Shown piece after piece: positions 11,480 to 16,521 of a DNA stretch of 40,147 nucleotides. The stretch lies in the sequence record NC_055023.1. One strand, written 5' to 3'. Source of the stretch: Staphylococcus phage SP276. Under the pieces are notes generated by a model. It was not told where the DNA came from, did no database searches, and saw only the letters and a list, made by a program, of their open reading frames with translations. Within the stretch, counting starts at the first letter, position 1. Each line of letters opens with the position of its first letter. A program made the position numbers and the translations under genes.

Positions 11480-11836
11480 GTTATAATATTGATAAACGAT
11501 CTACTCTATAATTTACTCAGTTATAGCGTGAGGAGCTAACTGTTGCGATGGTTGCCTATTTACTCACCACACCCTCACGGTGTGGTATTTTTTATGGAAA
11601 CACCCCGCCTGCAATAGGTGGGGTGATACCGTTTTTGATACCGTTAATATTTAAATCTCACAAATTTGAAAAATCGAAAATGGCTAAATCTCTTTTTTAC
11701 AGCTTTTTAACAGTGTTTCACTTCAAAAAATCAACTTTAAGATTACCCATGCAGGACATGGCGTTTACTAAAATCGCCAGTATTGCTATAGATTCCAGGA
11801 GATAATTATAAAAATGATACCATTTCGATACCATTA
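11480..11836. other. Probable attP region: two tandem + strand hairpin terminators and four arm-type direct repeats GATACC(G/A)TT
   Basis: Hairpins at 11566-11595 (ACCACAC/GTGTGGT + T-run) and 11601-11625 (CACCCCGCC/GGTGGGGTG). Tandem 12-mers TGATACCGTTTT/TGATACCGTTAA at 11624-11647. GATACCATT x2 at 11816-11835, overlapping the int stop codon. Confidence 0.55.
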
Positions 11837-12880
11837 GTCATCAAATAGTGACATAACATCATGCTTTTTGTTATTGTAAAAATGAGTGTAAGTATCAACT
11901 GTTTCAGTTATACTTGAATGGCGCAACAAATCTCGCAACACATAAATATCGCACCCTTTATCAGCAAGGTAACTTGCATAAGAATGTCTTAACCCGTGTG
12001 ATGTTATTTTAGGAAAAATGGTTTTAACGGTTCTCGAAAAATGTGCGTAATCAGGTGGGGCGTAACCACCGAAAACAAACATTGAATCGTTAAAGCCATA
12101 ATATTTATTTGATGCAATTTCATACATATCAGATAACATTTCAACGAGAATTTTTGGTATTGGCAATATAGCTATTGATGAGCTAGTTTTAGGATAATCG
12201 GCCATTTTCCTTTGAGTGATATCCCAAGTTTTAGATATACTTATTTCTTTTCTTTCTAGATTCACATCTTCCCAAAGCATCCCCATTGCTTCGCCCACTC
12301 TAGTGCCTGTATAAAACATAAAAGTTAACATTTCTCGATATGTGTCGTTTTTCAGATTAACTATTTTATTGTGAAATTCTTCTTTAGTTACAAAGTTGAA
12401 TTTAGTTTTCTTTTTAGGTATTGTAGGTATACCAGTACAAGGATTTGGCGACAAACCGTAGTAAAGAGAAGCATATGAAAAAACAGCTTTAAAAGTGAAC
12501 CAGATCGTACGAGCTGTATTTATTGAATTACAATTATCTATAAGATGAGTTCTAAACTCTAAACACTGAGGCCGTGTTATTTCTGAAATTTTACGGTTTC
12601 CAAACTTTTCTTTTATATGATTCGTGTAATCATATTTTTTTCTGCGTATAGTCCTTTCTCTTAAATCGGTATTTTTTAATTGTTCATAAAACACAACTTC
12701 GTAAATTTGTTTATCTGAATAACCGTTTTTAGTTTTTTGAATAAAATCTGCTTCTGCAACTTTAGCTTGACGTTTTGTTTTAAATCCACGCTTCATTTTG
12801 CGTTTATTATTTCCAAACACATCTTTATACCTTACTGAAAAATACCATTTACCTGTTTTGTCATCTTTGTACACCGGCAT
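11834..12880 (-). CDS. int: Tyrosine recombinase (phage integrase)
   Basis: C-terminal catalytic blocks HGLRHSYAS and LLRHSSITETVDTYTH (R..HxxR..Y). RBS gaggaggaatgacgaa before the ATG at 12880. The ORF-track start at 12898 adds 6 codons. Confidence 0.9.
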   Translation of the reverse strand: MPVYKDDKTGKWYFSVRYKDVFGNNKRKMKRGFKTKRQAKVAEADFIQKTKNGYSDKQIYEVVFYEQLKNTDLRERTIRRKKYDYTNHIKEKFGNRKISEITRPQCLEFRTHLIDNCNSINTARTIWFTFKAVFSYASLYYGLSPNPCTGIPTIPKKKTKFNFVTKEEFHNKIVNLKNDTYREMLTFMFYTGTRVGEAMGMLWEDVNLERKEISISKTWDITQRKMADYPKTSSSIAILPIPKILVEMLSDMYEIASNKYYGFNDSMFVFGGYAPPDYAHFSRTVKTIFPKITSHGLRHSYASYLADKGCDIYVLRDLLRHSSITETVDTYTHFYNNKKHDVMSLFDD

Positions 12881-12918
12881 TTCGTCATTCCTCCTCAAAA
12901 AAAGTAAAAAAAATAATA

Positions 12919-12936
12919 AGGGTACAGGAGTACCCT
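12919..12936 (-). terminator. Palindromic hairpin (AGGGTAC-AGGA-GTACCCT) with a T-run on the minus strand, immediately upstream of the int RBS
   Basis: Perfect 7-bp inverted repeat. On the minus strand it is followed by TTATTATTTTTTTTACTTTTTTTG. Confidence 0.5.
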
Positions 12937-13166
12937 GTTAATAGCTTGTTGCTATTAAGAATAAACTTATTAATCAATTCATGTTATAATTAACGGGAAA
13001 GTAGGTGAAAGTGTGAATTATATTAAATTTGTGATAACTCATTTTTTGATTATTCTAGTGGTTTTGAATTTAGCAATTAGAATTTCTATACTATTTAATT
13101 TAAATTATACTGTTAGTTTCATGATGCTATATATAATTTTTTTAATAGTTGTTAGAGTTGAAATTA

Positions 13167-14354
13167 TTAATTATTATCAGAATCATTTTGGGATACGCTT
13201 TCATCTTCGTTTTTAATTTCACTTTCAAATTTTTCAGGAATTTCTAAAATATTTTTATCAGATGCATTAATTTTTTGATAAAATGTGCGCATTGATTCTT
13301 CCATCTGTATTCTGTCGTATTGATATTTTAATATATCGGTCTTTAGTTTCTCTCTTTCAACATCATTTCTTAATTCTTTAATATCGTTTGGAACCTTTTC
13401 TTGAAATTCTATTCCACCTATGGATTTTATCTTTTTACCCTTAAAAAGTTGGTAAAAAAGTATCACATTAGCTACCCAACTACTAACATTAAATACTCCC
13501 TCGTTTTTGGAATAAATCTCTTTAATAAAATCAAATGGTATGTGTGATATGAATTCGATTAAACCAGGGCTTTGTACATCTATCTTTTGAGATTTAAATT
13601 CAAATGAAGTAATTTCGGTATACATCTTTATTAAATTATTAAATTCAAACCAAAGTTGAGGTGAGATATCTTCTTTTCTTTTTATGTCTATGTTTATGTG
13701 TAAATGATTATTCTGTATATAAACTGGGTTTATTAAATAATTAATTGCTTCTTTATATTCTGATAAATTTATTATTGTTTGATGCATTTGGAGCTTATTT
13801 AATATTTTAGGATCAATACGATAGCGTGAGCATTTTTTTAACCATTTTACTTTTCTATTAAGTTTATTTTTTGAATATTTATAATCCTTCTTCTTACTAT
13901 CTATTTTAATGTTTTGAATTTCTTTATCGGTATATTCAATCGCATTACTAACAATGATTCCTATAGAAAATTCGAAAGATCTATAATTTGGAATCAATAT
14001 GTAATCACCTATATTAATTTCGTGAATAAACTCAAATAAGCGCTTACTTAAATCAGTGATATTTCTTTTAGTTAAATTATTTTTTTCTAATATTTTATCT
14101 CTTTCATCTTCAGATAAGTTGGAAAGGTTTTCTTTCAATTCTTTCTGCTTATTATCATTTTTTGATGTAATTATTTTTTTGTAGTCGTCTAATTTATTAA
14201 ATCCTTTTAAAGTATTTAAATCTACAATGTTGTTAGTTATAGATACATGGTTATTATATTTAAAATCTTTGTACCAACTTCCACCATTTGTACGAATTAG
14301 CCAATAATTTGTATTGTCAGGAATCATATCGATTTTTAAATAATTTTCTTCCAT
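13167..14354 (-). CDS. Hypothetical protein (395 aa), AT-rich moron; no recognised family
   Basis: Strong RBS (ggaggttgaggg-ATG). Very AT-rich codon usage compared with the rest of the genome. The N-terminal pattern YWLIRTNGG…GDYILIPNYRSFEFSIGIIV may be PUA-like or PD-(D/E)xK-like. Acidic C-terminal tail. Confidence 0.7.
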   Translation of the reverse strand: MEENYLKIDMIPDNTNYWLIRTNGGSWYKDFKYNNHVSITNNIVDLNTLKGFNKLDDYKKIITSKNDNKQKELKENLSNLSEDERDKILEKNNLTKRNITDLSKRLFEFIHEINIGDYILIPNYRSFEFSIGIIVSNAIEYTDKEIQNIKIDSKKKDYKYSKNKLNRKVKWLKKCSRYRIDPKILNKLQMHQTIINLSEYKEAINYLINPVYIQNNHLHINIDIKRKEDISPQLWFEFNNLIKMYTEITSFEFKSQKIDVQSPGLIEFISHIPFDFIKEIYSKNEGVFNVSSWVANVILFYQLFKGKKIKSIGGIEFQEKVPNDIKELRNDVEREKLKTDILKYQYDRIQMEESMRTFYQKINASDKNILEIPEKFESEIKNEDESVSQNDSDNN

Positions 14355-14355
14355 C

Positions 14356-14400
14356 CCTCAACCTCCAATTTAAAAGGGTAGGCGTGCTAGCCCTTTTAAA
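14356..14400 (-). terminator. Intergenic hairpin terminator between the two moron genes
   Basis: AAAAGGG-(12 nt loop)-CCCTTTT followed by a T-run on the minus strand. Confidence 0.55.
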
Positions 14401-14401
14401 A

Positions 14402-14911
14402 TCATTTGTTCGCTATAACTTTTAACAATTCAATGATTTCTTCGTTCTGTTTTATAATTTTGTCATTTTGAGCTATTTGTATAAAATTTTGTTTTTGATG
14501 GGTCATATAATAATTATATGTAGCTTGTTTTTCCATATTAAATGTCAGTTGACCAAAAGCATGGTAAAATTTATCAAAGTTTGCTAATATCTGCTGCTTT
14601 TGAAAGACTTCTATTGTAGTGTTTGAAGGATTGTAAATACCTTGAGTAGCAAAGAATTTAGTTATTTTCTCTTTTTGAGATTCTTTGCTCTCTTTAATTT
14701 TAAGTTGCTTGGTTTTTACTTGTTCTTCTTTAAGTCTTTTTTCTTCTTTTAAAAGATCAATTGGATTGTCGTTTAGCCATTCCCAAACAACATTATCTTT
14801 TTGTTCACGTGTTAAAGATTTGTACACCTGCTTTTCTTCTGTTGTTAATGTTCCTTTATACTTATTTTCATTCCAATTTATTTTAGTTTGTTCTTTAAAA
14901 TTTCTAGTCAT
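14402..14911 (-). CDS. Hypothetical protein (169 aa), AT-rich, Lys/Glu-rich
   Basis: RBS aaggagtga 8 nt before the ATG at 14911. Same orientation and composition as the 395-aa gene. No motif recognised. Confidence 0.65.
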   Translation of the reverse strand: MTRNFKEQTKINWNENKYKGTLTTEEKQVYKSLTREQKDNVVWEWLNDNPIDLLKEEKRLKEEQVKTKQLKIKESKESQKEKITKFFATQGIYNPSNTTIEVFQKQQILANFDKFYHAFGQLTFNMEKQATYNYYMTHQKQNFIQIAQNDKIIKQNEEIIELLKVIANK

Positions 14912-14936
14912 TATGTATCACTCCTTGTTTTTATAT

Positions 14937-14957
14937 AAAGCGCCTTGAGGGCGCTAA
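14937..14957 (-). terminator. Hairpin AGCGCC-TTGAG-GGCGCT directly downstream of cI
   Basis: 6-bp GC-rich stem between the cI stop (14961) and the start of the 169-aa gene. Confidence 0.45.
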
Positions 14958-14960
14958 ATA

Positions 14961-15683
14961 CTACAATATAACTTTTCCTGCTACTTTAATATCGTGACTA
15001 CTATCAAAATGTAAATCAGGATATTTTGAATTCAAAGATACCAAACGTATACCTTCTTCATTGATAAACACCTTTTTTAAATAAGCCTCACCATCAATGA
15101 CAAATATACCAATTTGACCACTGTTGATTTGCTTTGTTTTATCGATAAAGATAATCTCTTTATCTTCAAACATAGGTTCCATTGAGTCACCATTCACTTG
15201 CAATGCAAAATCGTGGTTAGGTATGTGTCCGTTGTATTGCGTCGTAAATTCCACACCATCTATCAACGTTTCTCCAGTGCCTGCCGAAGCATAACCGTAT
15301 ACAGCAACTTCTTCGGATATTACATTGTGTGAATTTATATGTAAGACTTTGTTGTTTTGTTCATTTAATTGTTCATTAGCAAAGTCTAATACACGCTTTT
15401 GACGGGGAGGTGTGAGTTTGTCGTATATTGAAGTGATTGAGTTTTCATCTTTATATGTAGTACTTGCTTCACTATACAAATCATTAATCTTTACGTTGAA
15501 GTACTCAGCTAAAACTTTGGCTGTTGATAATCGAGGTTCTTCCTTTTCATTTTCCCATTTTGAAATCTTACCTTTCGTCAGTTTCATTAGGTCAGGATAT
15601 TTATTATTAAGGTCAGTTGCTAATTGTTCCATAGTCATATTTTTATTTTTTCTTAAATTCTTTAAACCTTCACCAATGCCCAT
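14961..15683 (-). CDS. cI: CI-like repressor (XRE HTH plus S24 LexA-like peptidase domain)
   Basis: N-terminal HTH (MTMEQLATDL…). C-terminal VNGDSMEP (Ser nucleophile) and an LKKV Lys motif. RBS aaggaggtcttcat-ATG. Divergent from cro. Confidence 0.9.
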   Translation of the reverse strand: MGIGEGLKNLRKNKNMTMEQLATDLNNKYPDLMKLTKGKISKWENEKEEPRLSTAKVLAEYFNVKINDLYSEASTTYKDENSITSIYDKLTPPRQKRVLDFANEQLNEQNNKVLHINSHNVISEEVAVYGYASAGTGETLIDGVEFTTQYNGHIPNHDFALQVNGDSMEPMFEDKEIIFIDKTKQINSGQIGIFVIDGEAYLKKVFINEEGIRLVSLNSKYPDLHFDSSHDIKVAGKVIL

Positions 15684-16257: not shown

Positions 16258-16521
16258 CTAGAGATAATCTTTCAAATGCTTAGAATCGCATATGACATTG
16301 CTCCATGCAGCTTCACCAGTCAACTTAGCTACAAACAGGCTGTCATCATTATCAACAAATAGTTTCAGTTCGTCTCTAATTTCTTTCGCACTGAATACTG
16401 AGTTAACAAACCAAACAGATTTATTGATTCTTTCAGCATTAGGATAATCCTTTATTCTACTTATCAATTTAGGGTAATCCTTATGGTCATTCAAGTCATA
16501 CGAAATGATATAGCTATTCAT
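16258..16521 (-). CDS. Hypothetical protein (87 aa), antisense to the early operon; motif order reminiscent of a Cas2/VapD-like fold
   Basis: Consensus RBS ctaaggaggtgaataac-ATG on the minus strand. Blocks YIISYDL / DYPKLISRIKDY / INKSVWFVN / DDSLFVAKL parallel the beta1-alpha1-beta2…beta4 motifs of Cas2/VapD. Confidence 0.55.
   Translation of the reverse strand: MNSYIISYDLNDHKDYPKLISRIKDYPNAERINKSVWFVNSVFSAKEIRDELKLFVDNDDSLFVAKLTGEAAWSNVICDSKHLKDYL

Follow-up and report, generated by a model that had tools for sequence, protein, structure and literature searches.

Between the integrase gene int and the cI-type repressor gene of Staphylococcus phage SP276 (NC_055023.1; the window is the whole stretch of 40,147 nucleotides (nt) that was analysed) lies an accessory interval (12899-14960) that is 100% identical to the sequence of Staphylococcus phage SP120 (AP019560, Coventryvirus), a phage obtained from S. 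pseudintermedius by mitomycin C induction. The locus is referred to as SP120 in the following. The interval comprises two unrelated cargo modules within the SP120 lysogeny operon. Module A (13013-14354) contains a gene for a protein of 395 amino acids (aa) and a convergent open reading frame (ORF) of 67 aa that is proposed here as the second component of a cassette. Module B contains a gene for a 169-aa protein together with a palindrome. Judged from its recurrence in other loci, the two-gene unit of the 395-aa family and a small membrane-protein ORF is very probably real. The chances that the cassette is a lysogen-expressed phage-exclusion system built from a sensor and a membrane effector are, in our estimate, about even.

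The 67-aa ORF was overlooked in the original prediction, which had been made from the sequence alone, and it is absent from the GenBank annotation. It lies in the 230-nt stretch that separates the 395-aa stop codon from the int-proximal hairpin and extends into the 395-aa gene, with which it shares the final 50 nt. In its product, two hydrophobic helices are combined with a tail that is basic and aromatic (GIRFHLRF). At the same position, eight staphylococcal, Mammaliicoccus and Macrococcus loci carry homologues of 67-74 aa, and their C-terminal tails are alike across these genera (GIRFHLRF, GIRVVRRF or similar). With a ratio of non-synonymous to synonymous differences (pN/pS) of 0.28-0.39 over the 49 codons outside the overlap, the protein sequence of the small ORF is, by this measure, under purifying selection. 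PHROGs held no match for eight of the small proteins, and the small protein was unmatched in Pfam at E <= 0.1. The exact 67-aa sequence was not found among 15 billion predicted proteins, in which the 395-aa protein occurs repeatedly. An excisionase role for the ORF was considered and rejected, the product being a two-helix hydrophobic protein.

The region upstream of the small ORF was compared in seven loci, namely SP120, S. devriesei, three satellite-like elements (phage-inducible chromosomal island (PICI)-like), a Mammaliicoccus prophage and Macrococcus. All seven carry the extended -10 element listed in Table 1. This small-ORF promoter has no good -35 element, which is why it was missed by a consensus promoter scan. 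The Shine-Dalgarno string AAAGTAGGTGAAAGTGTG is kept in four close staphylococcal loci, i.e. in most of the seven compared.

The conservation of the gene pair was examined in locus scans of one genome per species (32 loci) and of viral contigs (59 loci). The narrower alignment A3 was used for these scans, as the broad alignment A2 was too diverse. Large proteins were clustered at at least 70% identity, and 55 clusters had enough flanking sequence. Under a strict criterion (45-100 aa, two strong hydrophobic segments, located -160 to +380 nt from the stop codon of the family gene), 35 of these 55 non-redundant loci have a two-helix ORF at the 3' end of the family gene, the ORF being convergent in 30 and co-directional in five. 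Looser matches were obtained for 15 further clusters. The convergent arrangement is mostly found in Firmicutes, the co-directional one in Flavobacterium, Bacteroidales, Treponemataceae and one viral contig. Away from the family gene, two-helix ORFs occur at a background of 0.024 per 500 nt in genome loci L004-L038; in this set, 22 of 34 loci carry such an ORF next to the family gene versus about 0.8 expected. The paired loci range over phages, satellites and chromosomes of several phyla. Among them, Streptococcus phages SF39 and phiGBSVK-D and the satellite Javan339 encode distant homologues of the 395-aa protein between repressor and int, and in each case a small hydrophobic ORF converges on the 3' end of the homologue. 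In SF39, two annotated Fst-family type I toxin genes are also located in the lysogeny region, a few hundred nt upstream of the repressor (L006 1790-2194).

The same data bear on the alternative of a type I toxin-antitoxin-like addiction module, in which the small peptide would be the toxin, the convergent 3' untranslated region (UTR) the antitoxin RNA and the large protein a passenger. Such a module would be in keeping with a small hydrophobic protein, a strong -10 element, an mRNA that is predicted to be fully overlapped by the convergent transcript, and Fst toxins annotated in the same region of a Streptococcus phage. It does not account for the co-variation of the small ORF with the large family across phyla or for the co-directional orientation in five clusters. 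Moreover, proteins of 57-87 aa with two helices are larger than typical type I toxins, and purifying selection on the small protein together with the C-terminal overlap fits a protein partner equally well. A type I module is thus considered very unlikely.

The 395-aa protein belongs to a large family. Its match to PHROG 10226 covers the full length of the protein, and a profile search at 50% identity returned 1760 clusters at E <= 1e-3 and 535 clusters at E <= 1e-30. At E <= 1e-10, the family comprises at least 1,000 clusters (50% identity) from Firmicutes, Bacteroidota, Spirochaetes and others. Most members have 330-450 aa and are aligned over nearly their whole length. In the AlphaFold model, which is confident at residues 10-220 and poor past residue ~280, the N-terminal domain adopts what appears to be a PUA-like beta-barrel fold. 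On the basis of this model, the N-terminal domain is a probable, not a certain, PUA-like sensor domain. Sequence models of the PUA-like superfamily (EVE/YTH/ASCH) were unmatched in Pfam (E <= 1), NCBIfam and a profile search of PDB sequences, and a Foldseek search of the model against the PDB gave no significant match. Five aromatic residues (Y17, W18, F31, F109 and W171), considered with regard to a possible aromatic cage for a modified base, are invariant in an alignment of 21 sequences. Some relatives carry the precomputed Pfam accession PF28530, apparently a very recent family, for which no name was found in the local Pfam copy or in the literature. A Pfam match of the 395-aa protein to NOMO was dismissed as chance.

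Behind the N-terminal domain, the protein continues with a small alpha/beta domain, a hydrophobic helix, a coiled coil and an acidic tail (Table 1). Of 107 relatives, 65 score as hydrophobic in the segment that follows the QSPG motif, at a distance of 7-15 residues (10th-90th percentile). In the staphylococcal branch, this segment is weaker and placed after an inserted helix. The hydrophobic helix of the 395-aa protein is probably membrane-associated. Neither a nuclease domain (HNH, PD-(D/E)xK, Mrr) nor a McrB-type GTPase with McrC was found in the 395-aa protein, and no enzymatic effector domain is detectable in it.

The original prediction stated that the proteins match no recognised family. 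This holds for Pfam and NCBIfam, which returned nothing usable for the 395-aa, 169-aa or 67-aa proteins, and does not hold for PHROGs, where the 395-aa and 169-aa proteins match the function-unknown families 10226 and 5375 (E = 6e-45 and 2e-43), nor for PADLOC. There, the N-terminal domain of about 160 residues of the 395-aa protein matches profiles of PDC-S02, a bioinformatic, unvalidated candidate defence system. The 395-aa protein reaches E = 4.8e-7 with PDLC04819, three more PDC-S02 models match more weakly, and relatives score down to 5e-29. A type II restriction-enzyme model (REase_II) matches with a part of its length to the same domain. In all 28 proteins compared, the PDC-S02 match starts near position 3 and ends mostly by position ~170, never past position 203, of the 299-346 profile positions. 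The halt of the match halfway through the profile implies that the family shares the sensor-type domain and has a different C-terminal half. To identify the alternative C-terminal domain, family representatives with a profile match that stopped by query position ~270-300 were examined for full-length PDC-S02 members, and none had full coverage. The two also differ in that PDC-S02 is defined as a single gene, whereas the 395-aa family keeps a small membrane-protein gene. PDC-S02 correlates with prophage number in Pseudomonas aeruginosa according to one preprint.

The cassette occupies a mobile niche. In staphylococci, it is the last unit before int in SP120, in satellite-like elements and in a Mammaliicoccus prophage, and the 395-aa homologues follow repressor-side genes after gaps of 12-148 nt. 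The satellite-like carriers, which reside in S. epidermidis, S. cohnii and Staphylococcus sp. HKU1, encode primase-type D5_N/PriCT_1 genes; the S. epidermidis element also carries TscA. Across the viral contigs, an integrase gene follows the family gene within a few hundred nt in 30 of 56 loci, and prophages and satellites of Staphylococcus, Streptococcus, Lactobacillus and Bacillales repeatedly carry the family at this site.

The 169-aa gene, in contrast, is distributed independently. In a tblastn search with the 169-aa protein across 109 loci, a homologue was found beside a homologue of the 395-aa protein in SP120 only, and about 90 loci contain the 395-aa family without the 169-aa gene. The Coventryvirus phiSP119-3 shares positions 14331-14960 at 98.7% identity. 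This block includes the 169-aa gene (99% identity) and the palindrome behind it, and it extends over the ribosome-binding site into the next gene, of which it covers the first 24 nt. Different genes follow downstream: the 395-aa gene is replaced with DUF6978 and DUF1828/DUF1829 genes (L002 2768-4025). Homologues of the 169-aa protein were found in Staphylococcus only. In IME1354, the homologue is encoded directly after the repressor and an ImmA-like metalloprotease, and in phiIPLA88 it is located two genes away from int. The protein is predicted to be all-helical in a low-confidence model, and fold and sequence searches returned nothing specific. As far as these loci tell, the 169-aa gene is an independent repressor-proximal accessory gene outside the cassette.

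The expectation of horizontally acquired, variable cargo between int and cI was borne out by two Coventryviruses, phiSP119-3 and pSp_SNUABM-J, which differ here. In pSp_SNUABM-J, only the int-side positions 12899-13019 are shared and the cargo is otherwise entirely different. The shared part contains the int promoter region, the small-ORF promoter, its Shine-Dalgarno sequence and the first two codons, after which an unrelated soluble protein of 63 aa is encoded. In phiSP119-3, homology continues up to codon 8 of the 395-aa gene. The breakpoints (segments 12899-13019 and 14331-14960) hence fall within a few codons of gene starts, which suggests that cassettes are exchanged at conserved translation-start regions. 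A further copy of the family is found in S. aureus, in the lukED/egc genomic island between leukocidin and enterotoxin genes. There, a DUF6978 and DUF1828/DUF1829 pair is located 1-2 kb upstream of the 395-aa homologue (L039-L041 2590-3836). The same kind of pair thus replaces the cassette in phiSP119-3 and neighbours it in S. aureus, which suggests a shared pool of interchangeable int-proximal cargo.

The base composition had been estimated by eye at mid-20s against mid-30s percent guanine plus cytosine (GC), and calculation agrees. The GC content of 12899-14960 is 25.6%, compared to 36.1% (standard deviation 1.5, minimum 31.8) in equal-length windows outside the lysogeny region; a uniform composition is refuted. 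The 395-aa and 169-aa genes have the lowest GC content (24.6% and 26.9%) of all 44 ORFs with 120 aa or more, and their GC content at third codon positions (20% and 21%) is below the median of 31.5%. By composition and by comparison with the related phages, the cassette cargo is AT-rich and recently exchanged.

Three hairpins had been described in the interval as terminators bracketing each gene. Their folding energies were compared with those of 200 shuffled sequences (z) and complemented by a terminator scan. All three are present where they had been placed, and terminator quality is convincing only for 12919-12936, which alone passed the scan (z = -4.6). It is positioned past the small ORF, and a possible int promoter (TTAACA-17 nt-TATTAT, 12941-12913) overlaps with it. 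This hairpin probably ends the minus-strand lysogeny transcript. Segment 12899-13019 is 96.7% identical in pSp_SNUABM-J, the int-side gene order of which matches. Since this segment is kept there despite other cargo, the terminator is apparently a part of the int side. Between the terminator and the small-ORF promoter, a perfect 8-bp inverted repeat with a 5-nt spacer (TTAATAGC / GCTATTAA, 12938-12958, +/-) was observed, which could be an operator or binding site. The hairpin behind cI (14937-14957), which has a poor U tract (UUUAUAUAAAAA) and went unreported in the terminator scan, may act as a partial terminator or attenuator. The palindrome at 14356-14400 is no better than chance (z = -0.4) and fails the terminator scan, so that it is a weak attenuator or stabiliser at most. 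It sits in the block shared with phiSP119-3, where it precedes a different gene, and on this comparison it travels with the 169-aa gene.

The consensus promoter scan returned 21 promoter-like hexamer pairs versus 26.9 expected from shuffled sequences, and a promoter cannot fit between either of the two upstream hairpins and the ribosome-binding site that follows it. As promoter-like pairs are no commoner than chance and the hairpins are unequal, the hairpins do not establish separate transcription units. This affects the original prediction that the 395-aa and 169-aa genes form one system, expressed in the lysogen from separate terminator-bounded units. In favour of it, the two genes are neighbours with a shared orientation and a high AT content, and the hairpins do occur at the expected places. 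Against these points stand the chance-level hairpin between the genes, the missing U tract after cI, the missing promoter space and the shortage of promoter-like hits, together with the co-occurrence of the two genes in SP120 alone among 109 loci, the many loci with the 395-aa family only and the different neighbours of the 169-aa gene in phiSP119-3. Independent units are not supported, and a joint two-gene system of the 395-aa and 169-aa proteins is extremely unlikely.

Table 1 Features of the int-cI interval and its boundaries. Positions refer to the window or, where indicated, to residues of the 395-aa protein
Feature	Position	Strand	Basis or annotation
Tyrosine integrase (int), downstream boundary	11834-12880	-	Pfam Phage_integrase and Arm-DNA-bind_4; GenBank integrase, ATG at 12880
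Intrinsic terminator, 7-bp stem AGGGTAC/GUACCCU followed by UUAUUAUUUUUUUU (U-rich)	12919-12936	-	-11.0 kcal/mol, z = -4.6, 0/200 shuffles as stable
Extended -10 element TGTTATAAT	12982-12990	+	TGnTAnAAT invariant at equal distance upstream in 7/7 loci
Shine-Dalgarno AGGTGA, 4 nt before GTG	13003-13008	+	Read from the sequence
67-aa ORF, GTG start	13013-13216	+	Unannotated in GenBank
395-aa gene	13167-14354	-	GenBank 'hypothetical protein'
EVE/YTH-like (PUA-like) domain with helical insert (model-based prediction)	residues 17-215 of the 395-aa protein		
Small alpha/beta domain with near-invariant VQSPGxxE motif	residues 217-271 of the 395-aa protein		
Hydrophobic helix, followed by coiled coil and acidic tail	residues ~286-304 of the 395-aa protein		
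Imperfect palindrome AAAAGGGcUAG...CUACCCUUUU between the 169-aa and 395-aa genes (47-nt spacer)	14356-14400	-	-11.6 kcal/mol, 71/200 shuffles as stable
169-aa gene	14402-14911	-	GenBank 'hypothetical protein'
GC-rich hairpin AGCGCC-CUCAA-GGCGCU after the cI stop codon	14937-14957	-	-13.1 kcal/mol, z = -2.9, 2/200 shuffles as stable
cI-type repressor (helix-turn-helix and peptidase S24)	14961-15683	-	Pfam Peptidase_S24 E = 6e-27, HTH_19/HTH_3; GenBank phage repressor

From the sequence and the precedent of phage 80α, we infer the following expression model for the cassette. Transcription of the large gene would start at the cI promoter and run across the 169-aa gene, and the long transcript would stop at 12919-12936, the one good terminator. 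The small ORF would be transcribed from its own extended -10 promoter. Because this terminator is reached only after the small ORF, the long transcript would carry a 3' UTR complementary to the complete small-ORF mRNA, Shine-Dalgarno sequence included. With this antisense layout and a separate small-ORF promoter, the ratio of large to small product would flip between lysogeny and lytic growth. In 80α, the best-studied staphylococcal precedent, the whole lysogeny module is one transcript from the cI promoter, and ith-1 is a small opposite-strand gene next to int with its own constitutive promoter. Together, tha-1 and ith-1 make up an antisense 'non-contiguous operon', a switch between lysogeny and lytic growth (PMC11087260). 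At the level of sequence, the SP120 locus resembles this system in niche and gene layout. It differs in that the cassette has no match to HEPN (Pfam, PADLOC) and no sequence similarity to Tha-1/Ith-1. Furthermore, the SP120 partner has two hydrophobic helices, while nothing in PMC11087260 suggests that Ith-1 is a membrane protein.

The likeness to 80α gives rise to the main alternative, according to which the small membrane protein is not a co-effector but an inhibitor or antidote of the large protein (cf. Ith-1/Tha-1, antitoxin). During lysogeny, the cI transcript would silence the small ORF by antisense and leave the large protein active; in the lytic cycle, the inhibitor would be made and self-targeting avoided. 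The order of int, an opposite-strand small gene with its own promoter and a putative defence gene in the cI operon is the same as for tha-1/ith-1, and the position of the terminator puts the long transcript antisense to the entire small ORF including its Shine-Dalgarno sequence. The loss of the small ORF from the S. aureus island copy, which kept the large gene, would also be explained. However, the pair is also found in chromosomal loci without a detected integrase and is co-directional in Bacteroidota and Treponema, where no life-cycle switch is evident. Moreover, the large protein has no recognisable enzymatic effector that would need inhibition, and two transmembrane helices are unusual for an inhibitor. 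An inhibitor role is considered unlikely on balance, and it is the strongest of the alternatives discussed here.

In the co-effector reading of the cassette, the PUA-like domain would sense an infection-linked nucleic acid or nucleotide. The signal would pass to a membrane complex formed by the hydrophobic helix of the 395-aa protein and the small protein, and this complex would permeabilise the membrane (abortive infection) or block DNA entry. PUA-like (EVE/YTH/ASCH) domains read nucleic-acid bases, which are often modified, for example in the type IV enzyme VcaM4I and in the N-termini of archaeal McrB. Unlike such type IV restriction readers, the 395-aa protein has no nuclease or NTPase; its PUA-like domain is instead joined to a hydrophobic helix and a coiled coil and is accompanied by a small membrane protein. 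In phage lambda, RexA and RexB are a cytoplasmic sensor and a membrane protein that are expressed from the cI operon and cause exclusion by membrane depolarisation. This system would serve as a working analogy only: neither the 395-aa protein (E <= 1) nor the small protein (E <= 0.1) has a Pfam match, the presence of Rex models in the library being unchecked; RexB is larger, with four transmembrane helices, and the gene orientation differs. A precedent for a PUA-type domain as a defence sensor is the PUA-Calcineurin-CE-HAD module described in a recent preprint, the PUA domain of which binds m6-dAMP from the degraded host chromosome (bioRxiv 10.64898/2026.01.15.699771). That module differs in its effector domains (calcineurin-like and HAD) and in its mechanism, the depletion of deoxynucleoside triphosphates. 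A 2020 census of the contexts of EVE domains (PMC7641849) contains no mention of an architecture linked to transmembrane segments, and no description was found in a literature search for a PUA/EVE domain in a transmembrane defence architecture.

A function outside defence was also considered, e.g. a lysogeny or host-conversion role as a membrane-associated regulator of integration, excision or host physiology. The very consistent location of the cassette just upstream of int would be expected for such a regulator. SP120 also lacks an annotated excisionase, and the small ORF is found at the position that staphylococcal annotations traditionally name xis. On the other hand, a protein with two membrane helices does not resemble DNA binders of the excisionase type, members of the family are also found at loci without a detected integrase, the N-terminal domain is common to a candidate derived from defence islands and to a restriction-enzyme model, and the cargo is dispensable in close relatives. 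Taken together, a role without relation to defence is quite unlikely.

Several observations weigh against the cassette as an exclusion system with a membrane effector. The C-terminal third of the 395-aa model is of low confidence, with a predicted local distance difference test (pLDDT) score of <50 at residues 283-329 and 365-395, and the hydrophobic helix is borderline in the protein encoded here (1.28 in a 19-residue Kyte-Doolittle window). Five of the 55 clusters have no small ORF, mostly those with short family proteins (307-318 aa). The small proteins resemble each other mostly in hydrophobic composition, so that homology across phyla is unproven from these comparisons. A frameshift splits the small ORF in the S. 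aureus genomic-island copy (L039 6170-6380, -), with the N-terminal part encoded in one frame and the remainder, ending YYQNHYWLRLHLRL, in the next, while the large gene is intact; the large gene encodes 389 aa, and its 90%-identity cluster comprises 145 sequences. In the one published test found, a PDC-S02 representative, probably expressed as a single gene, did not protect E. coli B against T4, T5 or T7 (10.1101/2024.09.26.614923). Overall, we lean slightly towards an anti-phage role of the cassette. The specific membrane-effector mechanism is tentative and rather doubtful. The same reserve applies to its widest form, a widespread undescribed two-component anti-phage system in which a reader of modified bases or nucleotides would be wired to a membrane effector with an obligatory two-transmembrane-helix partner.

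SP120 and both large genes are already known from GenBank, and both families from PHROGs. The PUA-like assignment, the membrane-type C-terminal half and the conserved small partner gene appear to be new, as no description of them was found. The SP120 annotation gains one gene, and an antisense layout like that of tha-1/ith-1 is predicted. If the proposed function is true, a frequent int-proximal cargo of Gram-positive prophages and satellites would gain a testable architecture consisting of a sensor, a membrane effector and a hidden gene. PUA-like readers, which so far are found to front nucleases and a few enzymes, would also drive a membrane-level response. Being short and often convergent, the partner would usually be missed by annotation pipelines if the two-component reading is true. 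Catalogues of annotated genes could then lack an essential short convergent partner, which bears on the cloning and testing of candidates. Likewise, the antisense arrangement would give staphylococcal prophages a built-in switch between lysogeny and lytic growth.

The gene order around the interval was as originally described, with two genes of 395 aa and 169 aa between int and cI on the same strand, and all four genes on the minus strand. The cI gene is the upstream boundary of the interval and the probable source of the lysogenic transcript. At the downstream boundary, the 5' end of int would be 12898 instead if an upstream TTG was used as start codon. Between the lysin gene and int, an 85-aa ORF (11548-11805, +) has no Pfam match and corresponds to GenBank ORF_16, which has a later start. 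A strong terminator-like hairpin for the plus strand (11566-11586) is located inside the 5' end of this ORF, which therefore may not be a real gene. In the early region, an 87-aa ORF (16258-16521, -) matches Pfam CRISPR_Cas2 (E = 9e-7, 29.4 bits, cut-off 23.8). This Cas2-like protein of a temperate phage stands alone, with neither a CRISPR array nor a further cas gene in its vicinity, and its counterpart in pSp_SNUABM-J is annotated as 'putative CRISPR associated protein'.

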